Sequence record: NZ_CP028352.1
Source of the DNA: a plasmid
Strand: one strand, 5' to 3'
Length of the DNA: 64,000 bases
Below, piece after piece: positions 1,568 through 37,161 of the stretch. A program made the translations under genes and the position numbers. Position 1 is the first letter of the stretch. Every line of letters begins with the position of its first letter. The notes under the pieces are model-generated. The model had not been told where the DNA came from. It was given only the letters and a program-made list of their open reading frames with translations, and searched no databases.

Positions 1568-2017
1568 ATGAAACCGGCAATCTATGCTGAGGGCCTGACG
1601 GTTTTGTGGCCAGCCCTTTTTTCGCCGCCTGTGAAAATCCCTTTATATGGCGAATACTGCCCCGCAGGCTTCCCTTCCCCTGCCCAAGATTACGTTGAAA
1701 AAGAACTCGATCTCAATGAGCTCTGTATTCGCAGAAGGGCGTCGACCTTCTTCGTCCGTGCCAGTGGTAACAGCATGCAGGATCTTGGCCTCTATGATGG
1801 CGATGTCATGGTGGTTGATCGCGCCGAAGAGGCCTCTCACGGTGATATCGTTATCGCAGAGGTTAACGGTGAATTCACCGTTAAGCGGCTGCAGCTTCGC
1901 CCGCGCCTTGCGTTACTGCCCATGAATCCGGCTTACGCCGTTATCTATCCGGAGGAACTGCAGCTGCTCGGCGTCGTCACCTGGTTCTTCAGCAGTACGC
2001 GTGCACGCGGGAGGTAA
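1568..2017 (+). CDS. umuD: UmuD/MucA/ImpA-like SOS mutagenesis protein (S24 peptidase, LexA-like).
   Basis: ASGNSMQDLGLYDGDVMVVD (Ser nucleophile motif) and EFTVKRLQL (Lys general base) align with UmuD. The stop is 3 nt before the umuC-like start. Confidence 0.85.
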   Translation: MKPAIYAEGLTVLWPALFSPPVKIPLYGEYCPAGFPSPAQDYVEKELDLNELCIRRRASTFFVRASGNSMQDLGLYDGDVMVVDRAEEASHGDIVIAEVNGEFTVKRLQLRPRLALLPMNPAYAVIYPEELQLLGVVTWFFSSTRARGR

Positions 2018-2026
2018 TCCTTGCAC

Positions 2027-3301
2027 ATGTTCGGACTGGCCGACGTCAACTCGTTTTATGCGAGCTGCGAAGCACTATTCCGGCCCGATTTGCGTGGCAA
2101 GCCCGTCATCGTTCTCAGCAACAATGACGGCTGCGTTATTGCCCGCAGCGCCGGCGCCAAAAGACTTGGCATAAAAATGGGCGCGCCGTGGTTTCAGATA
2201 AAACATCAGGATTTTTCAGAGAGGATTTATGCCTTCAGTAGCAATTACGCCTTATATCATAGTCTTAGCCAGAGAGTTATGACGGCTCTGGAAGAAATGA
2301 CACCCCGCGTGGAGCAGTATTCAATCGACGAAATGTTCCTGGACCTGACCGGTATCGACGGCTGCGAAGACTTTGAACATTTTGGCCGGCGCCTGCGCAC
2401 GCATGTGCTGGCTACAACCGGTCTGACAGTCGGTGTGGGTATGGGGCCGACTAAAACGCTCGCAAAGAGTGCTCAGTGGGCGAGTAAGGAATGGCCACAG
2501 TTCCGTGGTGTGCTGGCGCTGACGCCGGGAAATATTCAGCGTACCGAAACACTTCTCTCAAAACAGCCTGTGGAGGAGGTCTGGGGAGTTGGCAGACGTA
2601 TCGGTAAACGGCTTAACCTGATGGGGATCAGTAATGCCCTGCAGCTGGCGCACGCGCATCCTGCCCTTATCAGGAAAAACTTCAGTGTTGTGCTTGAGCG
2701 GACTGTCCGTGAGCTGAACGGTGAATCCTGTATCCCACTTGAAGAGCTGCCGCCTGCTAAGCAGCAGATTTGCTGTTCAAGGTCTTTTGGTGAGCGCATC
2801 ACCTCAAAGATACTTATGCAGCAGGCGCTTTGTCAGTATGCGACACGGGCCGCTGAGAAACTAAGGGGGGAACGTCAGTTCTGCAGGCGCATCAGCGTTT
2901 TCATCCGGACATCGCCTCACGCAGAGAATGAGATTTTCTATGGTAACAGTGCCGGCGAGAAGCTCAGCCTGCCAACACAAGATACACGCGATATTATCGA
3001 GGCCGCTATGCGATCGCTTGACCGTATCTGGTTAGAAGACCGCCGGTACATGAAAGCCGGCATTATGCTCGATGACTTTACCCCAAATGGCGTCAGTCAG
3101 CTGAATCTTTTTGATGATGTGCAGCCGCGGGCTAACAGTGCGCAGCTGATGAAGGTACTGGACGGTATCAATCAGTCCGGGCTGGGAAATGTATGGTTTG
3201 CAGGACAGGGGGTTAGCACGGAGTGGAAGATGAAGCGGGACATGCTTTCGCCGGCGTGGACTACGCGCTGGGATGATATACCTGTTGCCCGCGTATTATA
3301 A
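2027..3301 (+). CDS. umuC: UmuC/MucB/ImpB-like Y-family DNA polymerase V catalytic subunit.
   Basis: MFGLADVNSFYASCEALFRPDLRGKPVIVLSNNDGCVIARS...; full length (~424 aa) and collinear with E. coli UmuC. Confidence 0.88.
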   Translation: MFGLADVNSFYASCEALFRPDLRGKPVIVLSNNDGCVIARSAGAKRLGIKMGAPWFQIKHQDFSERIYAFSSNYALYHSLSQRVMTALEEMTPRVEQYSIDEMFLDLTGIDGCEDFEHFGRRLRTHVLATTGLTVGVGMGPTKTLAKSAQWASKEWPQFRGVLALTPGNIQRTETLLSKQPVEEVWGVGRRIGKRLNLMGISNALQLAHAHPALIRKNFSVVLERTVRELNGESCIPLEELPPAKQQICCSRSFGERITSKILMQQALCQYATRAAEKLRGERQFCRRISVFIRTSPHAENEIFYGNSAGEKLSLPTQDTRDIIEAAMRSLDRIWLEDRRYMKAGIMLDDFTPNGVSQLNLFDDVQPRANSAQLMKVLDGINQSGLGNVWFAGQGVSTEWKMKRDMLSPAWTTRWDDIPVARVL

Positions 3302-10792: not shown

Positions 10793-11265
10793 AAACCCTC
10801 TAAAAAAATGACAGCGCTATGCAAAATCTGGCGGGATTTACCCCTGCTGCTTTCTCAGATTTCACACAGCGACGTCAGCTCCTAATCTGCCCATTTTCCA
10901 CTGTCTGACGGGGCCAGACCACCGGAAAAATCCGCTGAGTGGTCCTGCTTCATTTTCCGACTTCCGGATATATACCATAAAACGGAACAAAACAGCAGGC
11001 GGGGGATGGGCAGGGCAGATCCTGAAAAGATCCGGTTATGCCTGGATAAGGGGACCAGTGTGGTGATCGGACACCGTATGTTGTGGTCCCGGCCCTGAAT
11101 CGCCTCCTGACGCGGGGTTTCCGGTTATTACAGAAAACGGAAAGCGTGAACCTGAGAAATGGAACGCAGGTGATCACTAAGATAATTCTTAACAGCTTAC
11201 TGCGATCTGAGTAAAAATTGCGCTACTATAGGGCAATACCGCTAATCAGGGATAAGGAGAGAAGA

Positions 11266-13467
11266 ATGGCTGTGCTTACTATCAGGGGTGTCAGGAGTTA
11301 CGGTGCCGACAGAGACGTCCAAATAGATCTCAGCAACAAAGTTACACTGATTTATGGTCAGAATGGGTCGGGAAAATCAACTATCTCAAATTATTTTTCT
11401 GGATATTATCCGGAAAAGTACCGCCAGTGCCGTTTTGAAAGTCAGGTAGAATTGTTTCCGCTTGTATTCAATCAGGATTATATCGAAAGAAAATTTAGTC
11501 TTGAGAACGTTCAGGCAGGAATTTTCACACTCAGCGAGCACAATAAAGATATTCAGGAACAGGTTGAGAGTCATAAAAAAAGAATCGCTCGAACAGATGC
11601 AAAGGTAAGCGAACTTAACATTGAAATCGCCGGGCGGGCGGAAATGGAGTTGACCCTAATAAATAACTGCGCAGCCAGAATGTTTAAAAGGACATCCGCT
11701 GACCGGACTCGATTCACGTCTTTTCTTACAGGAGCGAAGCAGCAGAGAAATTTCTATGAACGAATAAATGATATTCCCCTCACAGTCGCACAACTGAACA
11801 CGGAGGAACTATCTGCCCGTCTCGAAAACCTGCAGAAAAGCAAAGGAACAAGTTTACCTTATATCAACATTAGCCTCCCAACACAGCTAAATCCTGATGT
11901 GATCCGGCTAATTCGTTCACCGCTTCAGCCCGCGTCGGGGACGCTATTTGCCGGGTTTATTGCAAATCTGGGAAATGCCGACTGGGTCAGAGAGGGGGTT
12001 CGATTTATTCATGACGATGTCTGCCCTTTTTGTCAGAACTCATTTGATGCAGCCCATTTTGCCGAAGAAATAGCAAGGATGTATGACAAAAGTTACACCG
12101 ACGCGATCGAAGTAATAAAAAAGGCAGCGGTAGAAGTAGCGGAAAATATTGAATATCTCAATGATCTATCGGAGAGAGTTTTCAGACACCCCGCGGTAAA
12201 CGAAGGTGCAGAAGTTCTCAGCTCACTCAAGTTACTTATTCAGATAAATCAGTCAAACCTTCAGACAATATTCAAGAAAATCGAAAGACCTTCTGAGATA
12301 TACGATGTGGCTGAAATTTCTGAAGCACGCAACAGCCTCATCAGCAACATAGATAAGATAAACAATACCGTTTCTGCTAACAACCAGCTGGCCGATAACT
12401 ACGATGCCGAAATGGCGAAGTTAAAGGCTGATGTCGACACGTATCTGCGCCAGATTTGCGACGAGTATCTTGTGGCACTTACGACTGAACTTCAGGAAGT
12501 CAGGGCTCAGAAAATAAAAGCCGAGCAACAAGCCTCAGCTCTTTTGACTGAAAGAAGGCAGCTCGGGGAGCAAACGTCACGACTTATAGGGCAACTTTCA
12601 GTCATTCAACCTACCATTGATTCCATCAATAATAATTTGAAAGCATTGGGCGTAACGGACTTCCATATATGCTGCCATGACGAGAAGATGAAACTTTACC
12701 GGCTCAGACGTACAAGCGATCCAGGAGAACGGGATGTATTCAGAACGCTGAGTGAGGGTGAAAAAACCATCATTGCGCTGCTCTATTTTATCGAATCCTG
12801 CACCGGCAGTGTTACGCCTGATGCCGTCCACGATGGCCGGAAGATAATAATTATTGATGATCCGATATCCAGCCTCTCACATAATTACATTTATGAAGTA
12901 GCCTCGCTGATAAAAAGAAAAATTATTAAACATGACATAGCCCGCCATCTGATAATCCTTACTCATAACCTGTTTTTCTTTCAGGAAATTTTGCTGACGT
13001 CAGTTAGAAGGCTGGAGAGTAAACTTGATGCCCCTAAAGGCTGGTCACTGCTACGTATTATCAAAAATGAGCACAGCGACTGTATCCCTTTATCCATGCA
13101 CGAAATGCTTAACGAGTATCAGGCTCTCTGGCAGACGCTCAAAGACGTGCAGGACAACAAGAGTCAGGTTATTGTGCTGCCAAATACGATGAGGAATATT
13201 CTCGAATACTATTTCAGCTTTGCCTGTAAAGAAGAAAAGCTGGAAAAAACGCTTGCCGCTCTGGCTTCAGAGCACGCCGAGGGCTGTTATGATTCGTTCT
13301 ATCGGGCAATAAACAGACATTCTCATTCAGATGGCAGAAACATTCTTTCTACAGGCATTATGGATAAAAGCGAATATTTCAGGCTTTTCAGAAAGATATT
13401 TGAAGAAATGGGTGAACTGGCTCATTACTGCTCAATGATGGACGAAAAACTGGAGGAAGTGATTTAA
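11266..13467 (+). CDS. AAA_13/ABC-type ATPase with a CxxC 'zinc-hook' and coiled-coil, RloC/PrrC-like (candidate anticodon-nuclease defence protein).
   Basis: Walker A IYGQNGSGKSTIS, D-loop IIIIDDPISSL and H-loop ILTHN. CPFCQ lies before a long coiled-coil segment. The C-terminal region has MRNILEYYF (R-x3-E) followed by EH/RH residues, as in the PrrC/RloC nuclease triad. Start chosen at MAVLTIRG with an AAGGAGAG SD. Confidence 0.55.
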   Translation: MAVLTIRGVRSYGADRDVQIDLSNKVTLIYGQNGSGKSTISNYFSGYYPEKYRQCRFESQVELFPLVFNQDYIERKFSLENVQAGIFTLSEHNKDIQEQVESHKKRIARTDAKVSELNIEIAGRAEMELTLINNCAARMFKRTSADRTRFTSFLTGAKQQRNFYERINDIPLTVAQLNTEELSARLENLQKSKGTSLPYINISLPTQLNPDVIRLIRSPLQPASGTLFAGFIANLGNADWVREGVRFIHDDVCPFCQNSFDAAHFAEEIARMYDKSYTDAIEVIKKAAVEVAENIEYLNDLSERVFRHPAVNEGAEVLSSLKLLIQINQSNLQTIFKKIERPSEIYDVAEISEARNSLISNIDKINNTVSANNQLADNYDAEMAKLKADVDTYLRQICDEYLVALTTELQEVRAQKIKAEQQASALLTERRQLGEQTSRLIGQLSVIQPTIDSINNNLKALGVTDFHICCHDEKMKLYRLRRTSDPGERDVFRTLSEGEKTIIALLYFIESCTGSVTPDAVHDGRKIIIIDDPISSLSHNYIYEVASLIKRKIIKHDIARHLIILTHNLFFFQEILLTSVRRLESKLDAPKGWSLLRIIKNEHSDCIPLSMHEMLNEYQALWQTLKDVQDNKSQVIVLPNTMRNILEYYFSFACKEEKLEKTLAALASEHAEGCYDSFYRAINRHSHSDGRNILSTGIMDKSEYFRLFRKIFEEMGELAHYCSMMDEKLEEVI

Positions 13468-21690: not shown

Positions 21691-21933
21691 TTTATGTGGA
21701 ATGCAATTTAAACAAAAAAAATGAGCAACTATTCCTCATGGACTGAAATCCAGAGCCCCACTTATTCAGCCTTAAATTGCTGCAGTTTACCTCCGCTCAG
21801 AGCATAAAGAAGTGAACTGGTAAGACATAGCCGGAAAATCGATTTCCCTGAGAGGGGGTTATCTGCCACGCTTCTTCTGAAGCCCTTAAGCGGGCAATGA
21901 GTCTTATCCCTTACCACCCCCTATGCAGGAAAA

Positions 21934-22935
21934 ATGATGATAAAAAAATACAGGATCCCGGGACTGACCGCGGTGGCGCTTCTTCTCATCAGCACCCTCG
22001 CCGGTGCCGCAGAGGCGCGCTGGACGTTTGACGGCGATATCCACAACAATTCTCTTGCTGTCAGTCCCGATGAAAAAACGGCGGTGGCCTCCTACAGTGA
22101 GCGCCCTGACGTGGTGGTTTACGACCTGGTTAACGGCAAAGTCAGAAAGGTGCTGAAGGGATACGTCACGCCCCGCAATGCGCTTTTCTCCCCCGACGGG
22201 AAGGCTGTATATCTTTCAGACAGCAGCCTCGGCGTGGTCAGAAAAATCAGCACCGGGACGCTTGACGTGGAGACCACGCTGCCGCTGGGGGCCGGGGCAT
22301 TCGGTACAGCCATCAGCCGTGACGGTCAGCGTCTGTATGTGAATAACGAAGCCGCCAGCACACTCTCGGTGTATGACCTGACCCACAACCGGCCCGTTTC
22401 GGTTGTGACGGGTTTTGCTCAGCCCCGTCAGGGCATCAAAATCAGCCCGGACGGCAAAACCGTCTACGTCACCAACTTTAAGGGCGATAAAATCACCCTC
22501 GTTGACGCCGTAACGGGTGAGATTCGCGGCGAGATAACCGGCTTCAGCAAGCTGCGCGCCATTTCTGTCAGCGCCGACGGCCGCACGCTTTACGCGGCTA
22601 ACAGCGGGAGCAACACCATCGCAGTGGTTGACACGCAGAAGCGCGCCATTACGGCAACCATTCCCGTGGGGCAGGACCCTTACGGTGCCGCCCTGACACC
22701 GGATAACCGCTATGTTTACAGCGGCAACCTGGGTGACAACAGCCTCTCCGTTATTGATACCGCCGCCGGTAAGGTGGTCGCCACTGTTACCGGACTGGAT
22801 GCGCCCCGTCAGGCCATCGTTTTCAGTAAAGACAGTGCCCGCGCGTGGGTGCTGAATAAAGACCTCAGTATTTCGGTGGTTGACCTGAAACAGAACCGCG
22901 TCACGGCCACGATTAAAAGCCCGCCGAAGGCCTGA
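21934..22935 (+). CDS. Secreted YVTN-family beta-propeller repeat protein.
   Basis: Signal peptide MMIKKYRIPGLTAVALLLISTLAGAAEA and repeated ~40-aa units (LYVNNEAASTLSVYDL / VYVTNFKGDKITLVDA / LYAANSGSNTIAVVDT / VYSGNLGDNSLSVIDT). Confidence 0.7.
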   Translation: MMIKKYRIPGLTAVALLLISTLAGAAEARWTFDGDIHNNSLAVSPDEKTAVASYSERPDVVVYDLVNGKVRKVLKGYVTPRNALFSPDGKAVYLSDSSLGVVRKISTGTLDVETTLPLGAGAFGTAISRDGQRLYVNNEAASTLSVYDLTHNRPVSVVTGFAQPRQGIKISPDGKTVYVTNFKGDKITLVDAVTGEIRGEITGFSKLRAISVSADGRTLYAANSGSNTIAVVDTQKRAITATIPVGQDPYGAALTPDNRYVYSGNLGDNSLSVIDTAAGKVVATVTGLDAPRQAIVFSKDSARAWVLNKDLSISVVDLKQNRVTATIKSPPKA

Positions 22936-23087
22936 TTCAGTCCCTCCCTCACTCCGGTGCAGTAACAGTCTTTCGCAGGGTGAGGGAGGATAAACCACTT
23001 TTACAGATTTATTTTAGCTGAATAACCTGTTTTAAAGATTTACGTCTGCATGCCTATACTGTTTCTGTTTACACAGGAGATCCCGGC

Positions 23088-24248
23088 ATGAACGATAAAA
23101 TATTTACCCTGCATAACGGAGCACGCCCGCTGAGCGCGCTGAGCAGCCCGAAAGAGGCCATACGTCAGTTCACGCCAAACTGGTTCGCCGCCACCATGGG
23201 AACCGGTATCCTGTCGCTGTCTCTGGCGCAGTTCCCCTGGCCGGTTCCGGGATTGCGCCTCGTCGCGGAAGGGCTGTGGATGTTTAACATCCTGCTGTTC
23301 AGCGTTTTTGCCGTGATGTATCTGGCCCGCTGGGTCATGTACTTCGGTGAGGCAAAGCGCATCTTCGGCCATTCAACCGTGTCCATGTTCTTCGGCACCA
23401 TCCCGATGGGCATGGCGACCATCATCAACGGCCTGCTGGCGTTCGGTCTTCCCCGGTGGGGCGCAGACGTCATTCCGGTGGCGCACGCCCTGTGGTGGCT
23501 GGACGTGGCGATGTCGCTGCTGTGCGGCGTGTGTATTCCTTACATGATGTTTACCCGGCAGCAGCACAGCATTGACCAGATGACGGCCGTCTGGTTACTG
23601 CCGGTTGTGGCTGCCGAGGTCGCAGCGGTCAGCGGCGGCCTGCTGGCGCCGCACATTGCCGACACCCACGCGCAGCTCGGCATCATTATTACCAGCTACG
23701 TGCTGTGGGCTTACTCCGTACCGGTGGCGCTGAGCATCCTTGCCATCCTGCTGCTGCGTATGGCCCTGCACAAGCTGCCGCACGAAAGCATGGCAGCCTC
23801 AAGCTGGCTGGCCCTGGGGCCGATTGGCACCGGTTCGCTCGGTATGCTGGTCATCGGCGGCGATGCGCCCGGGGTGTTTGCCGCGGCGGGCATGCCGGAA
23901 ATCGCTCACATCGCGCAGGGCGTGGGGTTCGTTGCCGGCATTCTCTTCTGGGGCTGCGGCCTGTGGTGGATGCTGCTGGCCACGCTGATAACCGTGCGAT
24001 ACTTTCGTGAAGGCATTCCGTTCAACCTGGGATGGTGGGGCTTTACCTTCCCGCTGGGCGTGTACACCGTCGCCACGCTGAAGCTGTCCACCCTCGTTGA
24101 CCTGGCGTTCTTTAAAGGCTTCGGCGCGCTTCTTGTCGTCATGCTGGCCGCCATGTGGCTGCTTGTCGCTGTGAAGACGGTGCGCGGGGCATGGAGCGGG
24201 AAACTCTTTGTTTCCCCCTGCCTGGCAGGCCTGGACCGGAAGTCGTGA
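23088..24248 (+). CDS. TDT-family (TehA/SLAC1-like) anion channel/transporter.
   Basis: 10-TM protein beginning MNDKIF...FTPNWFAATMGTGILSLSL, the conserved TehA/Mae1 N-terminal signature. Confidence 0.65.
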   Translation: MNDKIFTLHNGARPLSALSSPKEAIRQFTPNWFAATMGTGILSLSLAQFPWPVPGLRLVAEGLWMFNILLFSVFAVMYLARWVMYFGEAKRIFGHSTVSMFFGTIPMGMATIINGLLAFGLPRWGADVIPVAHALWWLDVAMSLLCGVCIPYMMFTRQQHSIDQMTAVWLLPVVAAEVAAVSGGLLAPHIADTHAQLGIIITSYVLWAYSVPVALSILAILLLRMALHKLPHESMAASSWLALGPIGTGSLGMLVIGGDAPGVFAAAGMPEIAHIAQGVGFVAGILFWGCGLWWMLLATLITVRYFREGIPFNLGWWGFTFPLGVYTVATLKLSTLVDLAFFKGFGALLVVMLAAMWLLVAVKTVRGAWSGKLFVSPCLAGLDRKS

Positions 24249-24844
24249 GTGAAACCTGCACGTCGCTGCTGGACCCCTTTCTGCGCGAGGAGCGCCTCGC
24301 GGCGATTACCGCGCCGCACGTAGCCGCGCTGAATCGCTGGGTCAGCGGGCAGCGTCAGGCCGGCGTGGAACTGCCGTGGTTTGATCCGGCCGACGGCGGG
24401 ACCGGGGCCGGACTGCTTGTCCTGCTGCAGTCGCCGGCGCGCAGCAGCCCGTCACCCCGGTTCGTTTCGCGAGATAACCCGGGGCCGGCCCAGCAGAATC
24501 TGGGGCGGTTTCTGGCGGAGGCCGGTATTGCGCGCCGGGACAGCGTGCTGTGGAATACGGTGCCCTGGGTCAGTGACGGGCCGCAGAAACGGCCCTCAGC
24601 GGCGGACATCCGCAGCGGCTGCGCCTGGCTTGAGGGCGTGCTGGCGTATCTGCCCGCGCTGCGCGTGGTGGTGCTGGCCGGTGCCGTAGCGGCGCAGGCC
24701 CGCGGGACGGTCAGCTGCCTTCGCCCCGGCGTCACGGTGCTGACTATGCCTCACCCCAGCCCGCTGTCGCTTTGCACAAGCCCGGCAGTGCCGGAAAACA
24801 TCCGCCAGGTGCTCCGCGAGGCACGCACTGCGCTGGCGGGCTGA
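24245..24844 (+). CDS. Uracil-DNA-glycosylase-superfamily-like protein (GTG start overlapping the upstream stop).
   Basis: GTGA overlap with the TehA-like stop. The weak match to the UDG fold (LLVLLQSP...TVPWVSDGP...LPALRVVVLAG) is a tentative assignment. Confidence 0.35.
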   Translation: MSETCTSLLDPFLREERLAAITAPHVAALNRWVSGQRQAGVELPWFDPADGGTGAGLLVLLQSPARSSPSPRFVSRDNPGPAQQNLGRFLAEAGIARRDSVLWNTVPWVSDGPQKRPSAADIRSGCAWLEGVLAYLPALRVVVLAGAVAAQARGTVSCLRPGVTVLTMPHPSPLSLCTSPAVPENIRQVLREARTALAG

Positions 24845-24897
24845 GAGCGCCGCCGGAATAATACTGACAGGTTTTGCAACCGGCTCTATACTCACAG

Positions 24898-24960
24898 TAC
24901 AGGGTGATGGCGTTCCACCCTTCCCAACCGCTCCGTTCAGGAGCTGATGACGCCTGATGT
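24898..24960 (+). ncRNA. Fluoride riboswitch (crcB RNA motif) aptamer upstream of the pyrophosphatase-enolase-crcB operon.
   Basis: ACAGGGUGAUGGCGUUCCACCC...AACCGCUCCGUUCAGGAGCUGAUGACGCCUGAUG matches the conserved GGnGAUGGnnUUCnCC ... AACCGCC ... CUGAUGAUnCCUAC blocks, including the GGCG/CGCC pseudoknot pair. Preceded by TGACAG-N16-TATACT promoter-like hexamers. Confidence 0.7.
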
Positions 24961-25041
24961 GACTCTTGATTTTCAGGAGGTGCGTCAGGCCGTCCTTACT
25001 TTCCTCCCGGCCTGCGTACTTCCCTCTATGGGGAGAGACCT

Positions 25042-25950
25042 GTGATACACGTTTTTGGCCACATTAATCCTGACAGCGACGCCATCTGCACGACCGTCGT
25101 CACCGCACACTGGCTGACCGGGCGCGGAATGGATGCCCGCGCATGGCGTCTCGGCGAGGCTAACCGGGAAACCCGCTTTATCTTTGACGCCGCCGGCCTC
25201 ACGCTGCCGCCGCTGCTCGCTTTTCCGCTAAAGGATGAACGGGTCTGGCTGGTCGATTTCACCGAACCGGCACAGGGGCCTGACGACCTGCTCCGGAGCA
25301 ACGTCGTGGGCATCACTGACCACCACCGGCTGGGCGGGCTGATAACGCAACTGCCGCCGGAGGTACATATTCGCCCGGTTGGCAGCAGCGCCACGCTGCT
25401 CTGGCTGCTGATGGACGCAGAAGCGCGCCGCATGCTGCCCCCGACGCTCGCCGTGCTTCTGCTGGGCGCACTCCTGAGTGATACCGTGAATCTTCGCTCG
25501 CCGACCACCACCGAAGACGATATCCGTTCGGCGACCGAACTGGGCGCACTGTCTGGCGTAAACCGCAGAGCCTTCGCCCGTGACCTCCTCACCGCAAAAA
25601 CAGACGTCAGCGGCCTCAGCGCACAGCAGCTGCTGGACAGGGACCTCAAGGCCTTCGTCATTGCCGGCACCGACGTGCGCATAGCCCAGATTGAGGTCAG
25701 CTCACCGTCACAGGTTGCCCCCGTGATGAACGACCTGCTCGCAGCACTGGCGTATCTGGCAGACCAGTCGGGAGCTGGCCTGGCGGTGCTGATGCTGACC
25801 GACATTCGTACCGGGTTCTCAACGCTTTACTTCGCCGGGCGGGAGAGCGTTAACGTCGCCTCCTGCTCCGTACCGGGCATGCTCAGCCGCAAAAAGCAGC
25901 TTCTGCCGTGGCTTGAGTCCCGCCTTAACCAGAACGGAGGTTCATTATGA
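25042..25950 (+). CDS. ppaC: Family II (DHH/DHHA2) Mn-dependent inorganic pyrophosphatase.
   Basis: N-terminal VIHVFGHINPDSDAICTTVVTAHWL (DHH motif I/II). 302 aa. Confidence 0.75.
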   Translation: MIHVFGHINPDSDAICTTVVTAHWLTGRGMDARAWRLGEANRETRFIFDAAGLTLPPLLAFPLKDERVWLVDFTEPAQGPDDLLRSNVVGITDHHRLGGLITQLPPEVHIRPVGSSATLLWLLMDAEARRMLPPTLAVLLLGALLSDTVNLRSPTTTEDDIRSATELGALSGVNRRAFARDLLTAKTDVSGLSAQQLLDRDLKAFVIAGTDVRIAQIEVSSPSQVAPVMNDLLAALAYLADQSGAGLAVLMLTDIRTGFSTLYFAGRESVNVASCSVPGMLSRKKQLLPWLESRLNQNGGSL

Positions 25951-26372
25951 CCTGCTACACCCACGCACTGATACTTGTGAACGATAAAAACGACGGCACT
26001 CTTCTGCTGAAACGGGCGGTCGCGCTGGCGCAGCCGCTCGGCATGAAAATCACCCTGGCGCACATCAGCGACGACTACCGGGAGATGAACTACGTGTCTG
26101 ACAGCCTGATGGACGACGTCGTGTCGGAGGAGGTGCTGAAAGGCAAAGCGTTTATGAGTGAGCTGGCGGCCTCCGTGCCTGAGACGGTAGACACGCGGGA
26201 GCTGGTGACCATGCGCCGCGTTGAGGACGTGGAGAAGTGCATCGCGGAGCTGGGCGTGGACCTCGTGCTTGCCGGGCACCGAAACCGCTTTATGGGAATG
26301 CTCACCTCCCGCTCGGCGGACTACATCAACCACCTTACGGTGGATGTGCTTATCACTCACCTGACTGACTGA
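25947..26372 (+). CDS. Universal stress protein (UspA family).
   Basis: 141 aa. ATGA overlap with ppaC. C-terminal GxxG...GSVT-like ATP-binding region (VLAGHRNRFMGMLTSRSADYINHLTVDVLI). Confidence 0.6.
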   Translation: MTCYTHALILVNDKNDGTLLLKRAVALAQPLGMKITLAHISDDYREMNYVSDSLMDDVVSEEVLKGKAFMSELAASVPETVDTRELVTMRRVEDVEKCIAELGVDLVLAGHRNRFMGMLTSRSADYINHLTVDVLITHLTD

Positions 26373-26387
26373 ACCGGGAGAAACACC

Positions 26388-27677
26388 ATGCGCTTTACAC
26401 TGGATAACGTAACCGCCCGTGAAATTCTTGACTCGCGCGGCAACCCCACCGTTGAAGTTGAAGCCCGGACTACGGACGGGATGATGGCGCGCGCCTCGGT
26501 GCCTTCCGGGGCCAGTACCGGCTCGCGCGAGGCCGCAGAGCGCCGCGACGGTGACGCACACCGTTTTGGCGGTAAAGGCGTGCTGGATGCCGTCAGGGCG
26601 GTTAATACGGAAATCTGCCAGGCCGTGCGCGGCAGCGACGTGCGCGAACAGCGTCAGCTGGACAACATCATGCTGGCGCTGGACGGCACGGAGAACAAGA
26701 GTCGCCTGGGTGCCAATGCCATTCTGGGCGTGTCGCTGGCGGTGGCCCGGCTGGCGGCACAGGCCTCCCACGAGCCGCTGTGGCGCTACCTGGGTGGCCT
26801 GCAGGCGAACCTGCTGCCCGTGCCGTGCATGAACATTATCAACGGCGGCGTGCACGCCCGCGGTCAGGGCGCGGACTTTCAGGAGTTCATGATAGCCCCG
26901 CACGGCGCACCCACGCTGCGCGAGGCCGTACGTCAGGGCAGCGAGGTCTACCAGGCGCTGCGCCAGATCCTGCTGGACAACAACCTGTCGGCGGCAGTGG
27001 GCGACGAAGGCGGTTTTGCGCCCGCCGTGTCGTCAAACCGCGACCCGCTGGCGTTTATCGTACAGGCCATTGAGAAAGCCGGATACCGGCCCGGAGAAGA
27101 CATCAGCATCTGCATGGACCCTGCCTCAAGTGAGTTTTTCGCAGACGGCAAATATCATCTGCGCACCGAGGGCAGCGCGCTGAGCGCGGCGGAAATGACG
27201 GCATACTACGGCGAGCTGATGGACCAGTTTCCCGTCATCCTGCTGGAAGACGGCCTGGCCGAGGACGACTGGGCGGGCTGGAAGCATTTGCACCGGCAGC
27301 TTGCGGGCAGGGCCGAACTGGTTGGTGACGACCTGTTTGTCACCAACGTGAAGTATATCCAGCGCGGCATTGACGAAAACCTCGCCAGCGCCGCACTGAT
27401 TAAACTCAATCAGATAGGCTCGCTCAGCGAAACGCTGGACGCCGTGGCGCTCTGCCAGCGGCACGGCTGGGGCGCGTTCATGTCCCACCGCAGCGGGGAA
27501 ACCACGGACACGTTCCTTGCCGACCTGACGGTGGCCCTGCGCGCGGGACACCTGAAAACCGGCGCGCCGTGCCGCGGCGAACGCGTGGAAAAGTACAACC
27601 AGCTGATGCGCATTGAGCAGGCGCTGGGTGACGATGCGCACTACGCGGGGCTTCATGCGTTTGTGCGCCGCACGTAG
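26388..27677 (+). CDS. eno: Enolase (phosphopyruvate hydratase), an extra plasmid/island-borne copy.
   Basis: MRFTLDNVTAREILDSRGNPTVEVEARTTDG... and ...SHRSGETTDTFLADLTVAL (enolase signatures). Confidence 0.85.
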   Translation: MRFTLDNVTAREILDSRGNPTVEVEARTTDGMMARASVPSGASTGSREAAERRDGDAHRFGGKGVLDAVRAVNTEICQAVRGSDVREQRQLDNIMLALDGTENKSRLGANAILGVSLAVARLAAQASHEPLWRYLGGLQANLLPVPCMNIINGGVHARGQGADFQEFMIAPHGAPTLREAVRQGSEVYQALRQILLDNNLSAAVGDEGGFAPAVSSNRDPLAFIVQAIEKAGYRPGEDISICMDPASSEFFADGKYHLRTEGSALSAAEMTAYYGELMDQFPVILLEDGLAEDDWAGWKHLHRQLAGRAELVGDDLFVTNVKYIQRGIDENLASAALIKLNQIGSLSETLDAVALCQRHGWGAFMSHRSGETTDTFLADLTVALRAGHLKTGAPCRGERVEKYNQLMRIEQALGDDAHYAGLHAFVRRT

Positions 27678-27714
27678 CACATCCGCCGGACGGTCCCCGT
27701 CCGGCACAGAAGGA

Positions 27715-28428
27715 ATGCCTGTGGCCTCTGCAACGCTGATCCTTTTGCGTCACGGCGAAAGCCAGTGGAACCGGGAAAACCGTTTTACCGGATGGACAGA
27801 CGTGCCGCTGACGGTCAGGGGGCGGCAGGAGGCCGACCGGGCCGGTGACGCGTTGCGGGCAGCGGGCCTGATGCCCGACCGTGTCTTCACCTCGGTGATG
27901 ACACGCTGCGTTCACACGGTCTGGCGGGTGCTGGACCGTCTTGACCGCAGCTGGACGCCCGTGGAAAAGAGCTGGCGACTGAATGAGCGCCACTACGGGG
28001 CGCTGCAGGGGCTGAACAAGGACGACGCTGCCCGGATAATGGGGGAAGAGACTGTCCGGCTCTGGCGCAAAAGCTTCAGCGGCATTCCGCCCGCGGACGC
28101 GGAGGCTCCGGCGCAGCTGCGTCGGGATCTGCGCTACCGCCGCGTTGCGCTGGCCGACCTGCCTGCAACGGAAAGCCTGGAAATGACGCTGCGCCGCGTC
28201 ATGCCGTACTGGCAGCATGCTGTGGTACCGCAGTTACGCTGCGGAAGTTCCGTTCTGGTTGTGGCGCACGGCAACACGCTGCGCGCCCTGACCGCCTTCC
28301 TGGACGGCATGCCTTACGACAGCGTGGCACAGCTGCACATCCCGACCGGCGTGCCGGTCGTATATCAGATGGATGCGGCCGCCCAGGTCGTGTCCCGTGA
28401 TGTTCTGAATATTAAAAAAAAGGAGTGA
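27715..28428 (+). CDS. gpmA: 2,3-bisphosphoglycerate-dependent phosphoglycerate mutase (GpmA-like).
   Basis: LILLRHGESQWNRENRFTGWTDV...LNERHYGALQGLNK...VVAHGNTLRAL is collinear with E. coli GpmA. Start chosen at MPVASA with a GAAGGA SD. Confidence 0.8.
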   Translation: MPVASATLILLRHGESQWNRENRFTGWTDVPLTVRGRQEADRAGDALRAAGLMPDRVFTSVMTRCVHTVWRVLDRLDRSWTPVEKSWRLNERHYGALQGLNKDDAARIMGEETVRLWRKSFSGIPPADAEAPAQLRRDLRYRRVALADLPATESLEMTLRRVMPYWQHAVVPQLRCGSSVLVVAHGNTLRALTAFLDGMPYDSVAQLHIPTGVPVVYQMDAAAQVVSRDVLNIKKKE

Positions 28429-28805
28429 ACGTGAATCAGCTTTTTGCCGTCATCACCGGCGGTGCTTTAGGGTGTGTTATCCGCTGGCAGCTGGGCGCGC
28501 GCCTGAATGCGCTTTTTCCGGACCTGCCGCCGGGGACGCTGCTGGTCAACCTGCTGGGTGGATTTATCATCGGGGCGGCCCTGGCGTATTTTCTGCGCCA
28601 TCCCGGCCTCGATCCGGCCTGGCGGCTGCTCATTACCACCGGGCTGTGTGGAGGAATGACGACCTTCTCCACATTTTCAGCTGAGGTTTTTGCCCTGCTG
28701 CAGTCAGGCAGCTATGCCTGGGCAGCCGCCTCGGTGCTGATACACGTGCTGGGTTCGCTGGCCATGACGGCGGCCGGATTTTATATCATGACGCTGTGTG
28801 GTTAA
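28425..28805 (+). CDS. crcB: Fluoride ion channel CrcB/Fluc.
   Basis: 126-aa four-TM protein MNQLFAVITGGALGCVIRWQL...GFIIGAAL...GLCGGMTTFSTFS (Fluc signature). ATGA overlap with gpmA. Confidence 0.8.
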   Translation: MNVNQLFAVITGGALGCVIRWQLGARLNALFPDLPPGTLLVNLLGGFIIGAALAYFLRHPGLDPAWRLLITTGLCGGMTTFSTFSAEVFALLQSGSYAWAAASVLIHVLGSLAMTAAGFYIMTLCG

Positions 28806-28972
28806 CCCGGACCGTACGGCCTTTAATCCAGGCGAGACCTCAGTGCAGCGACCGCTGCACTGAGGTCAGACAGTTCAGTATATTGTTCAGAAGCGCTCTC
28901 TGCGGGCCTGACCCGACAGGGTTTACGCCTGTAATGCTTCTCGTAAATCCGGGGCACTGTCGTGACAGAGTT

Positions 28973-29386
28973 TCAGGTCTGTCTGTTCTGGTAAAGGTCC
29001 CAGCGATTGCCATAGATGTCCTCAAACACGACAACCATTCCGTATTCTTCCTCCCGCGGCTCCTGACAGAAGTGGACGCCTTTTGCCTTCATGGCATTGT
29101 AGTCGCGCCAGAAGTTGTCGGTCTGCAGGAACAGAAAAACCCGTCCGCCGCACTGATTGCCAATAAAGCTTTCCTGCCGATCGTTCGACGCGCGGGCAAG
29201 AAGAATAGCACAGTCGCTGTCAGGGTCCGGCGTCACCACGACCCAGCGCTTACCCGGCTGCGGCGTGTCCTCAATCAGGGTAAAGCCCAGCTTATCGGTG
29301 TAATACTCAATTGCACGATCGTAGTCATCGACCACAACAGCCACATACCCCATACATCGCTTCTGTTTTCTCATCTGCGGCTCCAT
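28973..29386 (-). CDS. VOC/glyoxalase-bleomycin-resistance family protein.
   Basis: 137 aa. GYVAVVVDDYDRAIEYYTDKLGF...EDIYGNRWDL has the typical paired beta-alpha-beta-beta-beta module. Confidence 0.65.
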   Translation of the reverse strand: MEPQMRKQKRCMGYVAVVVDDYDRAIEYYTDKLGFTLIEDTPQPGKRWVVVTPDPDSDCAILLARASNDRQESFIGNQCGGRVFLFLQTDNFWRDYNAMKAKGVHFCQEPREEEYGMVVVFEDIYGNRWDLYQNRQT

Positions 29387-29499
29387 CAGTTACGGCATCA
29401 CGCCCGCTATAATCAGATTTATATCAGATACGACGTTCGGTCGTCTGTACTGACTCTGCGCTGACACCCTCAGGCCGGACATTGTAAGCATCTGATCCG

Positions 29500-31617
29500 T
29501 CAGGATTGTGGATCCAGTCTTGTAAGAACCCGCTCAACCTTTTCAGCATCCTGCTCCAGTATGGATCTCTCATCGGGAGTGAGCGGAACCTCTTCGAGGT
29601 AACGCCGGATGGATGCTTTACTCTCCATTATCAGCCCGCGCGCGCTGTCTTTAAGCAGGTTAAAATCGCAGCCGATGCAGGCCATCCGGTGCTGACAGCT
29701 GCTCCAGAAAGGGTTCGTGCAGTATGAGTCACCCAGATCATAGTACGTCGCGGGTCCGGTCAGACTGGCGGCTTCCGGATCGTGGTCAATCAGCACGCTT
29801 ATCATATGAGAGACCCTGTCGGCTTTGACGAACGAAGCGGCCAGCTGAGTCGGACGTATACGAATATAATGCAGGGTTGACTGTGGGGATGAATGGCCGG
29901 ACCACTGCATCAGCTCATGTAAAGACATCCCCCCGGCAACACTGGCCAGTGCTGTAACGGCAGAAGCACGGCCGCGGTGGCTGGTAATGGGACCGCGTGA
30001 ATCTTCCACAGACATACCCGCTCTGGCGCAGAGAAGCGGAATGACAGTGAGATTTATTATGTTTCTTCCCACCGGTTTACCCCGGTTCTGAAACAGATAA
30101 CGAACTTTTTCACCGGTGCGTTCATCCGTAAATGCTGCCTGCTCCTGAGGACGCTCACTGAGCCAGATATCGACATATTTTTTCACAACAGACGAGACTG
30201 GCTTAACAAAAGCTTTAGACGTTTTGCCGGCTGGTACGCTGAGATAGCACAGAGTACCGGCCGGGACAGGGCTGCTGTTTTCCTGCAGAATGTCATCCAC
30301 CTGTGGGGTAACGCAGTTCATTGTCAGGCGCAACAGCTCGTTCTGTCGCAGCCCGGCATGCGTCCAGATAACCGCCATAGCCTGAAGCATAGACAGGGGA
30401 TAATGAATTTCGCTCAGCAAATCTTCCTGACGCAGGTTCAGACTCGCCCAGACCAGTCTGAGCCAGACCGGATCATCAATAACGCGGGGGCTCACGCCCT
30501 GACGAAACAGCGGTGTATCAGGCGTGGACAGATGGCGGGCCGGACTGAACTTTAATCGCCCCCATCCCCAGCTTTCATAATCAAGCATAAAACGGCGAAT
30601 GGCATAAACAAACCGGCTGCGGGAATGCGGCATCAGGGGTTCTCCTGAGCGTTTTGATTGTCTGCCCCCTTTCTTTGTATCCAGTGACAGCTCGTCTACT
30701 TTCAGTCTGCCGACCATTGCAATAAAGCTGGCGCAGGTTTCCATTGTCCAGTCAGAGGGCTCGCATATTTCCGGCTTTTCCCGGGCAAGCCACAGGCCAC
30801 AGCGGAGAATAAAACTGTACTGAGTTTCTCTGGAGCGGGGGCGGAGTACCGACGTTTCCCGCCACATCCGGCACCACCGCGCCCAGTCAGGTGCGATACC
30901 TTGTGTTGGCTTTTCATGCCATTCCTGATAGTTACGCATTCTCAGGGGGCTCTCTATAATTCCCATAGCAGCAAGCGCACAGGATATTTTCCCCGTAGCT
31001 CTTGCGATTCCCCGGTCGTGGCAGTTCTGCCCCCGCCACAGGAGGTCTGTCGTAAAAGTTCCAAGACGCGGGTCGTTGTTCATCAGCATCAGTACACCCA
31101 GCATACCGGACATATTGTGCTTCTGATTCTGCCCGGCATATCCCATTGAGATCAGAACGTCTGTCAGCCGGTTAATTTCATGACTGACAATACTCCGGCC
31201 ATATATAGCACTGGCGTACAACGACGGTGCGCCATGCACTGGCAGGCTGAGCGGAGAAGAAAACGGACCGAGATGAAAGGCAAAAGCAGCAAGCAGGGGC
31301 CTGCCGGAACAGTGTTGCTCACAGAGCGTTAACCATCTTTCCTGCGTCCACTGCCAGCAGGGCTGACCCGACCGGTGCGTTTCTGCAAGAACGGCAAGGA
31401 GGGTAATTCTGGCAAGTCTGACACTGATACTGCTTCGTGAGGCAATGTCCTGCAGAGGCAGCAGCAAATATGGCAGGGAATCTGGCCGATCGAGCGCAGC
31501 AGACCGCCGGTAGCCTGTACGTATCGCGTCTTTTTCCTCAGGACTCAGCGCATCGCTCAGCTGATAATCTGTGCGTTTGAAAGGTATATAAGTGACTGTG
31601 TTTTTTTTTCCACTCAT
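29500..31617 (-). CDS. Large tyrosine recombinase (705 aa), Tn554 TnpB-like, of the element.
   Basis: C-terminal catalytic region ...LMQWSGHSSPQSTLHYIRI... (H-x-x-R ... Y). ATGA overlap with the 335-aa recombinase gene. Confidence 0.65.
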   Translation of the reverse strand: MSGKKNTVTYIPFKRTDYQLSDALSPEEKDAIRTGYRRSAALDRPDSLPYLLLPLQDIASRSSISVRLARITLLAVLAETHRSGQPCWQWTQERWLTLCEQHCSGRPLLAAFAFHLGPFSSPLSLPVHGAPSLYASAIYGRSIVSHEINRLTDVLISMGYAGQNQKHNMSGMLGVLMLMNNDPRLGTFTTDLLWRGQNCHDRGIARATGKISCALAAMGIIESPLRMRNYQEWHEKPTQGIAPDWARWCRMWRETSVLRPRSRETQYSFILRCGLWLAREKPEICEPSDWTMETCASFIAMVGRLKVDELSLDTKKGGRQSKRSGEPLMPHSRSRFVYAIRRFMLDYESWGWGRLKFSPARHLSTPDTPLFRQGVSPRVIDDPVWLRLVWASLNLRQEDLLSEIHYPLSMLQAMAVIWTHAGLRQNELLRLTMNCVTPQVDDILQENSSPVPAGTLCYLSVPAGKTSKAFVKPVSSVVKKYVDIWLSERPQEQAAFTDERTGEKVRYLFQNRGKPVGRNIINLTVIPLLCARAGMSVEDSRGPITSHRGRASAVTALASVAGGMSLHELMQWSGHSSPQSTLHYIRIRPTQLAASFVKADRVSHMISVLIDHDPEAASLTGPATYYDLGDSYCTNPFWSSCQHRMACIGCDFNLLKDSARGLIMESKASIRRYLEEVPLTPDERSILEQDAEKVERVLTRLDPQS

Positions 31618-32624
31618 CAGTAAGCCCCCGCCTGAAAAATAAGGCCAGCGATTTTCCTGTCGGTTTCAGCTACGGCTGCGGTTATCCGGCCAGACAGATC
31701 GGACCCTGACAGATGGATATAAATCTGTGTGGTGCGCGGATCTCTGTGTCCAGCATAAGTCGCCAGCTCATGCAGCTTCCAGCCGGCCCGAGCCAGATGG
31801 GTCAGGCGAAGATGGCGAAAGGTGTGGGTTGTAATCTGTGGAAGCCCCGTATCCAGAGCCCATCTGCGCACGGTTTTACTCCAGCTCCACACAGAAAGAA
31901 GAGTGCCGTAATTACGATCAGAAAATGAACGGAACAACGCCCCCTGTGTCCGGCCAGCCCGCTTCAGCTGCCGGAAAAGGTTTGCCAGTACCGGCGTAAT
32001 GTCCGGACCATAGCACACAACCCTTTCACGCCGGCTTTTCGTTGTTTCCGGGCGGATACGGATCAGGCGATGAGCAGGGTCGATATCCTCAAGCGTCAGG
32101 GCTGTCACCTCTGCACGGCGGAGTGCACCAAAATAGGCCAGTGCGAGCATCAGCCGGTCCCGCAGGGAAGCAGCTGAAACATGTTTAAGAAATCTCAGCC
32201 ATTGTTCATTGTCAGGTATTACAGGTAAGCGGGTGATACGCGGGACAAGCCCCCGCCCGGTATAAATGGCACCCGGTAAACCCGCGCGGGGTAGCGGATT
32301 GAGACTGCATATATCCTGATAAACAAGAAAGTCATACCAGAGACGGATAGCAGACAGGCGCAGCTGGAGCGTGGCACTGGCCGCAGGGTAAGGCATGCCA
32401 GGCAGCTGAGGGCGGATGTAGGCGGCGAGGTCTTCAAACCGGGCTTTTTCAGGTTCAATTCCGTTCTCGCTGCAGAACGAAAAGTAATGATGAAGGGCGC
32501 TACGGTAGGCGGTGAGTGTGCCCTGCGCCCGCCCGAGATCGGATAACAGTTTCAGCCAGCGCTCTGCCAGCAATAGGCTTTGTTCATTCGGTGGGATCAG
32601 CATCGTGTTCTCCTCTGACAGCAA
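31617..32624 (-). CDS. Tyrosine recombinase (335 aa), XerC/Tn554 TnpA-like, of the element.
   Basis: N-terminal core-binding domain; C-terminal THTFRHLRLTHLARAGWKLHELATYAGHRDPRTTQIYIHLS (R-H-R-Y). Confidence 0.75.
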   Translation of the reverse strand: MLSEENTMLIPPNEQSLLLAERWLKLLSDLGRAQGTLTAYRSALHHYFSFCSENGIEPEKARFEDLAAYIRPQLPGMPYPAASATLQLRLSAIRLWYDFLVYQDICSLNPLPRAGLPGAIYTGRGLVPRITRLPVIPDNEQWLRFLKHVSAASLRDRLMLALAYFGALRRAEVTALTLEDIDPAHRLIRIRPETTKSRRERVVCYGPDITPVLANLFRQLKRAGRTQGALFRSFSDRNYGTLLSVWSWSKTVRRWALDTGLPQITTHTFRHLRLTHLARAGWKLHELATYAGHRDPRTTQIYIHLSGSDLSGRITAAVAETDRKIAGLIFQAGAY

Positions 32625-32674
32625 TATCGCTGCTCAAAGTTTACTCACTCAATGTTGCATTCCACTTAACTTAC

Positions 32675-35995: not shown

Positions 35996-36862
35996 TCAGG
36001 TTGTGACCAGCAGGTCGTCACCGAGTCGCGTGTAGTGTCCGCGTGAAAGCTTCATGCGCTCCGTGACGCGGCGCTCTATCTCCGTGCGGACTGCATCAAG
36101 GCTGCCAAAAAAGTCGCCATTACGAATTTCTTTCTGCAGCTGCAGTCGTACCAGCTGCTCGATGTCCTTACGGGTGCGCGGTGCGTCTTTGCGTGCACGG
36201 TGGCGCTTCATGCCGTGCTCACGCCGTGACTTCTGATACTCACGGAAGCGCTCACGTACAAATGACCAGGCGGCGCCAATGAGCTCACCGGCGTCAGCGC
36301 GCGGTAAGCCCTTCTTTTCACGCTGGCGGTTTTCCCACTCGATGCGGCTGCGGCGTGCGGCCGCAACGGCTTCCTCGGAGACGTCCAGCACCTGCCACAT
36401 CAGCGGCGTGAAGGTGATGTCCGTAGGGATATTGCAGCCAATTTCTTTATCGTATTCGGTGTTATAGGTGAGGAGCTTCAGCTGGGCCATAAACTGCACG
36501 GCACCGGTGAAACGGGTGATCGAGAGGCGTTTCTTCTCGGTGGCCAGCCCGCAGCGAATACTCATAGTGGTGAGTGAGGCGCCTACGCGATTGGCCAGCG
36601 GATTGAAATAATGGCAGAGAGCCTGTAGCGAGGCTTCCAGTGCACGCATACGCAGTTCCGGAGGACGGCGCTTACGCTCCCCCCGGGCTATAGACATGGC
36701 AACCAGTGACTGGAACTCCATGCGCTGGGTGAAGCCTGCCGCTTTCTCACGGATTTTTTCGCAGAACGGCAGGGTTTTCTTTCCGTTCTCTGGAATAAAT
36801 TCCGGATTAGGATTCTTTACCTGCCGGTAAAATGAGGTGTTTTCAGTAAGTTGCTTATTCAC
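35996..36862 (-). CDS. repA1: IncFII-type replication initiator RepA1 (GTG start).
   Basis: VNKQLTENTSFYRQVKNPNPEFIPENGKKTLPFCEKIREKAAGFT... is collinear with R100/R1 RepA1 (YRQVKNPNP...CEKL.EKA.GF...DPLANRV...). Confidence 0.85.
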   Translation of the reverse strand: MNKQLTENTSFYRQVKNPNPEFIPENGKKTLPFCEKIREKAAGFTQRMEFQSLVAMSIARGERKRRPPELRMRALEASLQALCHYFNPLANRVGASLTTMSIRCGLATEKKRLSITRFTGAVQFMAQLKLLTYNTEYDKEIGCNIPTDITFTPLMWQVLDVSEEAVAAARRSRIEWENRQREKKGLPRADAGELIGAAWSFVRERFREYQKSRREHGMKRHRARKDAPRTRKDIEQLVRLQLQKEIRNGDFFGSLDAVRTEIERRVTERMKLSRGHYTRLGDDLLVTT

Positions 36863-36929: not shown

Positions 36930-37030
36930 ACTATACTCCCCGCATAGAGCAACAGCTTCTATGCAGATTCAGTGAGCCCCGTTAGTCTTCTCCGTGTCGC
37001 CAAACTCAGGAAGATTATCGGGGTTTTCTT
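36930..37030 (+). ncRNA. copA: Probable CopA-type antisense RNA (copy-number control) in the repA1 leader region (approximate coordinates).
   Basis: The call rests on position alone: it lies between repA2/copB and tap, on the strand opposite repA1, as in IncFII replicons. The exact ends were not determined. Confidence 0.35.
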
Positions 37031-37161
37031 TTTTCTGGCCTTCACTAATCAGTCAGCACCAGACTTCTGCCACCTTTCGGCGTGGCAAACCAGGAACTTA
37101 ATTGCGAGCTAATGTATCACCACAGGTTTGCACAATCAATTTCCGTGAATAGTCACCTTCA

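Follow-up and report, generated by a model that had tools for sequence, protein, structure and literature searches.

A fluoride riboswitch upstream of a ppaC-usp-eno-gpmA-crcB operon on a plasmid-borne umuC island, with a predicted two-helix switching leader

Genes for pyrophosphatase, enolase and CrcB are among those most commonly associated with fluoride riboswitches (PMC11139923), and in the Bacillus cereus switch the pseudoknot strand of the aptamer also serves as the base of a terminator hairpin (PMC11077080). Here we describe a riboswitch of this class in a 64,000-nucleotide stretch of DNA from a Pantoea plasmid (sequence record NZ_CP028352.1), referred to below as the window, in which it precedes the five-gene operon ppaC-usp-eno-gpmA-crcB. 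Unless stated otherwise, coordinates count from the first letter of the window, and all leader features and operon genes lie on its + strand.

An operon of this kind has been characterized in Enterobacter cloacae FRM, where an RF01734 element lies upstream of ppaC-uspA-eno-gpmA-crcB(-orf5249) (Liu et al. 2017, PMC5533749). It is co-transcribed, gives rise to two transcripts and, by RNA-seq and qRT-PCR, is induced by fluoride at the RNA level, about 100-fold for ppaC, uspA and eno and about 10-fold for gpmA and crcB; its deletion cuts the minimal inhibitory concentration (MIC) of fluoride from >4000 to 1500 mg/L, and knock-outs and complementation back its role in resistance (PMC5533749). The DNA that carries the operon in the window has been described as well: an island of about 11 kb in umuC is known from ICEPan elements, from strain C9-1 of Pantoea vagans and from pEI70/pEb102, which are plasmids of Erwinia (De Maayer 2015, PMC4458695), and the same island is fragment R4' of pPV989-94 (PMC5971314). 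Its cargo was read as genes of glycolysis and energy metabolism; fluoride is absent from PMC4458695, and fluoride riboswitches appear only in general terms in PMC5971314. In the literature searched, the explicit reading of a riboswitch-controlled fluoride island was found for the Enterobacter homolog only, and nothing else relevant emerged on the fluoride riboswitch together with Pantoea.

Publications cover the riboswitch class, the arrangement of the operon and the umuC island alike, and annotation pipelines detect the switch, so that the finding itself is already known: correct but ordinary. Our additions are modest. We link fluoride tolerance to the umuC island of Pantoea and Erwinia, which earlier work took for a glycolysis or fitness island and which spreads over several plasmid backbones and into chromosomes. 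We also offer a model of the expression platform with two alternative helices, backed by covariation in 22 leaders and open to experiment; the literature searched contained no prior study of the platform of this lineage. Overall, we read the element at 24894-24963, together with its leader, as a fluoride ON switch that would control ppaC-usp-eno-gpmA-crcB through the transcript, and we give this explanation a probability of about 0.8.

The aptamer, its promoter and their conservation

All 4227 Rfam families were run against the entire window, each at its curated gathering threshold, and two matches resulted in total. The first, to RF01734 ('Fluoride'), lies at 24894-24963 (+), with 50.2 bits against a gathering threshold of 34 and an E-value of 6.1e-11; it spans model positions 1-64 of 64 and is not truncated. 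The other is a CopA antisense RNA, unrelated to the fluoride switch, and the scan of the whole window detected no further riboswitch copy before gpmA or crcB. A sequence-only reading of the window had proposed a fluoride riboswitch here, quoting three aptamer blocks and a GGCG/CGCC pseudoknot. The blocks are present as it wrote them, GGGTGATGGCGTTCCACCC at 24902-24920, AACCGCTCC at 24926-24934 and GGAGCTGATGACGCCTGATG at 24940-24959, and the covariance-model search, run over the full model, bears out the class. Helix P1 pairs 24902-24906 with 24916-24920, and helix P3 pairs 24930-24934 with 24940-24944. The pseudoknot connects the P1 loop to the 3' tail, GGCG at 24909-24912 with CGCC at 24951-24954, which is a compensatory variant of the Rfam consensus GGaG/CUCC. 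These results confirm the RF01734 element as a genuine fluoride riboswitch aptamer, far above chance level.

A sigma-70-like promoter, CTGACA-17-TATACT, lies just upstream at 24864-24892 with 10 of 12 matches. It, too, had been seen by the sequence-only reading, whose TGACAG-N16-TATACT is one base out of register. The same -35/-10 pair recurs in Pantoea, Erwinia and Kosakonia-type leaders. Transcription from this promoter would start at about 24899, a few nucleotides 5' of P1, so that the mRNA would carry the riboswitch at its 5' end. From the end of the aptamer match to the GTG start codon of ppaC (25042) the distance is 79 nt.

To place the leader among its relatives, we searched for PpaC homologs in one genome per species, which gave 78 loci, and assembled 22 distinct aptamer-bearing leaders from loci whose PpaC proteins are 55-97% identical. 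These leaders, aligned with plain MAFFT, come from Pantoea, Erwinia, Kosakonia, Klebsiella, Raoultella, Huaxiibacter, Pseudocitrobacter, Mangrovibacter, Pluralibacter, Dryocola and several metagenome-assembled genomes (MAGs). The aptamer core is invariant among them, and the spacing from aptamer to start codon is nearly fixed. P1 is paired in 100% of cases and P3 in 96.4%, with CG replaced by UA at columns 39/50 and 40/49 in nine and three sequences, respectively. The pseudoknot is likewise 100% paired, with a single change from G-C to G-U; being nearly invariant, it adds little covariation evidence itself.

The riboswitch is not a constant companion of ppaC. It was missing from 10 of the 11 ppaC loci of Citrobacter, Buttiauxella, Superficieibacter and Ewingella that were scanned with Rfam, with no RF01734 match within 6 kb (L019, L021-L023, L029, L032, L043, L047, L049 and L050). 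These ten chromosomal ppaC homologs, at 46-63% identity, stand alone, without usp, eno or crcB. The count of riboswitch-free loci rests on the Rfam scan (11 loci, 10 negative), as a regular-expression search proved too strict and overlooked the Pseudocitrobacter locus L036. There, a solitary ppaC does carry the riboswitch, along with a clean U8 terminator.

Alternative leader helices and the proposed mode of switching

Beyond the aptamer, the minimum free energy (MFE) fold, RNAalifold and the pairing across the 22 leaders all support a hairpin, A:B, at 24949-24994, which we propose as the structure of the OFF state. As its 5' strand it uses the 3' tail of the aptamer (24949-24960), the CGCC of the pseudoknot among it; an inner stem-loop occupies 24963-24979, and the 3' strand, B, lies at 24982-24994. 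In isolation the hairpin has a predicted energy of -28.3 kcal/mol. The design resembles that of a terminator, in that the base of the hairpin takes in the 3' strand of the pseudoknot (24951-24954). A:B-type pairing can be read by eye in the distant Escherichia coli leaders L080 and L081. Directly 3' of A:B follows a U-rich tract, CUUACUUU (24995-25002), a weak candidate for the tail of an intrinsic terminator: five of its eight nucleotides are U, while the orthologous tracts are U8 in L036 and U6GU5 in L053.

Strand B has an alternative partner, strand C at 25009-25018, with which it can form helix B:C (24981-24991 with 25009-25018; predicted energy of the hairpin, -20 kcal/mol). We folded the leader in two states, free and as a bound mimic in which the aptamer was locked. 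The unpaired share of strand C falls from 41% in the free ensemble to 0% when the aptamer is locked. B:C was also considered as a terminator and rejected, given that the sequence that follows it, UUCCCUCU, is not a U tract. Further downstream, an anti-Shine-Dalgarno (anti-SD) strand, CUUCCC at 25019-25024, pairs with the Shine-Dalgarno (SD) region GGGGAGAG at 25030-25037, which sits 4 nt 5' of the GTG at 25042. Pairing of the SD reaches about 90% in either ensemble, with unpaired probabilities of 0.12 (free) and 0.08 (bound mimic). As this pairing is equal in the two modelled states, the anti-SD:SD hairpin is not the switching element, and an SD-occlusion switch was rejected as the main mechanism in the window. 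The spacer between strand B and the SD region (24995-25029, 35 nt) contains 15 C and 4 G, and its C/G ratio is 1.8-4.7 in all 22 leaders.

Both helices carry a signal of conservation. A:B is 94.7% paired across the 22 leaders, with four pairs altered on both sides, and B:C is 94.1% paired, with 5 of its 10 pairs altered on both sides. Column 92, in strand B, covaries with column 67 and also with column 131, its two partners, which is the signature expected of mutually exclusive helices. When the partners were slid by one to three columns as a control, pairing fell from about 92% to 39-53%. RNAalifold independently recovered P1, P3, A:B and the anti-SD:SD hairpin.

We thus propose the following sequence of events. 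Without fluoride, the aptamer tail (24949-24960) would be captured by strand B (24982-24994) to form A:B, and this hairpin, followed by the U-rich tract and then by a C-rich, unstructured spacer, would bring transcription to a premature end. With fluoride, the pseudoknot of the Mg-fluoride-bound aptamer would retain the tail, B would pair with C, and RNA polymerase would enter ppaC. We hold it highly probable that the element is a functional fluoride ON switch, and take an exchange of A:B for B:C to be the likely way in which it switches. The termination step is one that we infer, and so are two points discussed below, namely that PpaC acts as a bypass and what the hairpin after eno does. That the output in the window is chiefly intrinsic termination is a tentative reading of the model, somewhat short of an even bet. 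Because SD accessibility is the same in the free and bound states, control at the level of the transcript is the better reading for the window, and it agrees with the roughly 100-fold RNA induction of the homologous FRM operon.

Several points weigh against this explanation. Leaders of the Kosakonia and Klebsiella type have only one or two U after A:B; a terminator scan of the window gave no entry for A:B plus CUUACUUU; and the same pair falls below the classical hairpin-plus-T-tail criterion when this is applied by hand. Helix B:C is left unexplained by a simple terminator model, since strand C is transcribed after the putative termination point. In the covariation counts the unit is the sequence, not the evolutionary event, and several double changes do no more than set two clades apart. 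Moreover, the fluoride response was demonstrated in a homolog, and the characterized operon of the E. cloacae/E. coli type is 45-75% identical in its proteins and has its start codon directly after strand B, so the output mechanism may differ between lineages. The weak U tract, the C-rich spacer and a B:C helix that hides part of this spacer are what keep our assessment of intrinsic termination low, and with it Rho-dependent and translational outputs as rivals. In favor of a terminator stand L036 and L053, with their clean U8 and U6GU5 tracts right after A:B.

In a Rho-dependent output, the single-stranded C-rich spacer of the OFF state (24995-25029) would load Rho, and B:C would fold part of it away in the ON state. 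This accounts for the C-rich, G-poor composition of the spacer in all 22 leaders, for the modelled exposure of strand C in the free but not the bound state, for selection on B:C past the putative intrinsic termination point, and for the poor U tracts of many leaders. Rho-linked riboswitch control is, in addition, established for other classes in enterobacteria. Yet 35 nt is short for a rut site, the C-richness is owed partly to the anti-SD CUUCCC, L036 and L053 have textbook intrinsic terminators, and the literature searched contained no report of Rho dependence for the fluoride class; we consider this output unlikely, though worth keeping in mind. Translational control, in which fluoride would alter ribosome access to the SD and start codon of ppaC with RNA changes following as a secondary effect, is less plausible still for the window, where the SD lies 36 nt past strand B, its accessibility hardly differs between the two states, and the anti-SD hairpin is compatible with either alternative helix. 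It stays among the rivals on account of the E. coli/E. cloacae-type leader, whose design looks translational: in L081 the annotated ATG comes 9 nt after strand B and an AGG lies within B, resembling the classic SD-sequestering design. The anti-SD:SD hairpin (25019-25024 with 25030-25035) is also conserved, and in Pseudomonas and Burkholderia fluoride riboswitches are taken to act on translation (PMC12667848). Finally, the aptamer could be a decayed relic or a chance match, the operon being expressed constitutively from its promoter. The sole point for this is that the window leader is known from its sequence alone; an E-value of 6e-11 in the window, an invariant core and covarying stems in 22 leaders with proteins down to 55% identity, and the fluoride inducibility of the homologous element make it very improbable. 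A fluoride ON switch acting through the transcript is the reading that we retain.

Operon genes, island and plasmid

The five genes follow the riboswitch on one strand (+) in the order ppaC-usp-eno-gpmA-crcB, with junctions of -4, 15, 43 and 2 nt, and family searches upheld the identities that the sequence-only reading had given them. The first gene, ppaC (25042-25950), with the GTG start that this reading had noted, encodes a manganese-dependent enzyme of the DHH/DHHA2 type by its Pfam domains (DHH and DHHA2). The protein aligns over its full length with solved family II pyrophosphatases (6ll7, 1wpp, 1k20 and others; E-values of 1e-44 to 1e-35), and its HxxxDxD, DHH and SRKKQ motifs align with those of the solved enzymes, from which we would expect pyrophosphatase activity. 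It narrowly misses the cutoff of the NCBIfam equivalog NF003877 (272.6 against 283 bits), which explains why its RefSeq name is just 'DHHA2 domain-containing protein'. The next gene, usp (25947-26372), overlaps the ppaC stop by 4 nt and belongs to the universal stress protein family (PF00582, with weak matches to UspA/UspC). An accessory enolase of non-enterobacterial type is encoded by eno (26388-27677; TIGR01060, 584.6 bits), and its best solved relative is 4yws, at 535 bits, versus 448 bits for the E. coli enzyme 1e9i. A phosphoglycerate mutase of the dPGM type (gpmA, 27721-28428; TIGR01258, 289 bits; start as in RefSeq) and a Fluc fluoride channel (crcB, 28431-28805; NF010792, 177.4 bits against a cutoff of 125; Pfam CRCB) complete the operon. 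An open reading frame of 222 aa at 28796-29464 (+) was considered as a sixth gene and rejected as spurious, as it has no family match and overlaps a VOC gene on the opposite strand.

In the proposed physiology, CrcB (Fluc) would export the fluoride ion, PpaC would bypass the fluoride-sensitive family I pyrophosphatase of the host, and the extra enolase, with its pathway partner GpmA, would restore lower glycolysis. Family I pyrophosphatases are strongly fluoride-sensitive, whereas the activity of family II enzymes is reported to be insensitive and to confer tolerance in yeast (PMC11857102); given this insensitivity of its class, we prefer to see PpaC as a bypass enzyme and not as a target. Among classic fluoride targets is enolase, with a Ki of about 80 uM (cited in PMC11139923), a block that additional or foreign enolase would ease, and for GpmA fluoride inhibition has not yet been reported according to Liu et al. 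(PMC5533749). The earlier claim that every gene of the operon encodes a fluoride target or exporter is thus overstated: it holds for enolase and CrcB, but PpaC belongs to the insensitive class, and neither GpmA nor Usp, which has no defined role, is an established fluoride target. In a bolder reading, the enterobacterial ppaC leader would be a three-strand variant of the platform (tail A, B and C), with B:C locking the bound state and a Rho-type OFF state, and, separately, the cargo enzymes (family II pyrophosphatase, non-enterobacterial enolase and metal-independent dPGM) may be fluoride-tolerant replacements rather than extra sensitive copies. We regard this combination as speculative and rather doubtful, and continue with the ON switch as set out above.

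Between eno and gpmA lies a GC-rich stem-loop, GCCGGACGG-UCC-CCGUCCGGC (27685-27705), a candidate partial terminator or 3'-end stabilizer. It would probably give rise to a more abundant short transcript of ppaC-usp-eno. Of the 15 loci that we folded here, most have a strong GC-rich stem-loop after eno and a few fold weakly; the sequences of these stem-loops are unrelated between lineages, which suggests convergent selection for a 3' end or an attenuator. These stem-loops are consistent with the two transcripts of E. cloacae FRM, of which the shorter, ppaC-uspA-eno, is the more abundant.

The operon is part of an island of about 11 kb (21696-32665) inserted in umuC, delimited by umuC fragments, terminal repeats and a shift in GC content. 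Its ends are 11-bp perfect inverted repeats, GTGGAATGCAA at 21696-21706 and TTGCATTCCAC at 32655-32665. Mapped against the intact umuDC of the window itself (1568-3301), the split UmuC comprises residues 1-78 at 32910-32677 (-) and residues 76-421 at 21701-20670 (-), with umuD adjoining. About three umuC codons (around codons 76-78) are present on both sides of the island, suggesting a short duplicated or shared core site. Two tyrosine recombinases of 705 and 335 aa are encoded at the 5'-umuC end (29500-31617 and 31617-32624, both -), and the VOC-family gene of the island also lies on the - strand. GC content is 59-66% in the cargo and 53-55% at the recombinase end, against 41-51% in the left flank and 48-54% in the right. 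Upstream of the riboswitch, at 21934-24844 (+), we observed genes for a YncE-like beta-propeller, a TDT/SLAC1-family anion transporter and a UDG-superfamily protein, a position that places them outside its control; an anion channel adjoining a fluoride operon is suggestive. The intact pair, umuD (1568-2017) and umuC (2021-3301), both on the + strand, shares 54-67% protein identity with the split copy.

The split umuC, the inverted repeats, the recombinases and the transfer genes of the window bear out the view of the sequence-only reading that the riboswitch sits on a mobile element within a conjugative plasmid. The transfer genes are Dot/Icm-like, and the transfer region matches Pantoea plasmids that carry annotated conjugation genes and are mostly typed as conjugative. 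Replication control is represented by an IncFII-family repA (35996-36862, -) and, just upstream of and opposite to it, the CopA-like antisense RNA (RF00042, 69 bits; 36944-37032, +), which together form a module. Elsewhere, the window encodes a protein of 1337 aa that combines an LPD7 domain with a resolvase-type HTH (59895-63908, -), a large polyvalent protein typical of conjugative elements, and a 749-aa AAA_13/SMC-like ATPase (11218-13467, +; PF13166, 354 bits). ATPases of the latter kind are often parts of defense or abortive-infection systems.

A megablast search with the 4.9-kb operon segment found it at 92-99.9% identity and at least 80% query cover on 22 PLSDB plasmids of Pantoea, Erwinia and Kosakonia, which differ in their backbones. 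The backbone of the window diverges from that of NZ_CP068441 around umuC.

Comparison with known systems

The aptamer shares with described RF01734 switches (Baker et al. 2012; B. cereus crcB, T. petrophila) its P1, P3, 4-bp pseudoknot and conserved core, and, as predicted here, the same ON logic upstream of fluoride-mitigation genes. With the B. cereus switch it also shares the overlap by which the 3' strand of the pseudoknot is the base of a downstream hairpin. However, the hairpin in the window is much longer, at 46 nt with an inner stem-loop, and its U tract is weak. Unlike in the B. cereus model, the 3' strand of this hairpin has a second conserved partner (B:C). Another 48 nt pass before the start codon, which is preceded by an anti-SD hairpin of its own.

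The island of the window matches the published umuC island in its 11 genes, in its insertion in umuC beside umuD, in its high GC content and in the XerC/XerD-like recombinase pair at the 5'-umuC side, with no structural difference. A related module is found on E. coli plasmids of the virulence type, for instance pEC244_2 (L080), where it lacks gpmA and lies between the sit and aerobactin (iuc) loci, in a context of Tn3 remnants; identities to the window are 48% for PpaC, 74% for Eno and 69% for CrcB. RefSeq annotates a 'Fluoride riboswitch' feature in both L080 and L081. In E. coli more broadly, a related accessory eno occurs in 973 of 5426 complete genomes (about 18%), almost always plasmid-borne, of which two loci were inspected. 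The same survey contained 138 records with a partial query match at 90-95% identity.

The FRM operon has the same gene order as that of the window, both lie on horizontally acquired DNA, and the hairpin after eno sits where the second FRM transcript was inferred. The window operon lacks the sixth FRM gene (261 bp, a fragment of a P-type ATPase) and the RND pump next to it, and its carrier differs, being a umuC-targeting recombinase island on a plasmid, in contrast to the transposase-flanked chromosomal island of FRM. By homology to FRM, fluoride induction, co-transcription and a role in resistance would be expected of the window operon as well. As a proxy for the FRM sequence we used L081, from the chromosome of E. 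coli EH09-18-41, which has an identical gene layout. Protein identities between the window and L081 are 45% for PpaC, 46% for Usp, 75% for Eno, 49% for GpmA and 73% for CrcB, and the two leaders differ past strand B. With the ppaC start annotated in L081 (positions 2558-2620 of that locus), the protein gains about 18 residues ahead of the conserved FGH motif; this start comes 9 nt past the switching hairpin. In this lineage, unlike in the window, the riboswitch may act on translation. Judged by these sequences, the window operon is a diverged ortholog of the characterized operon and not the same allele.

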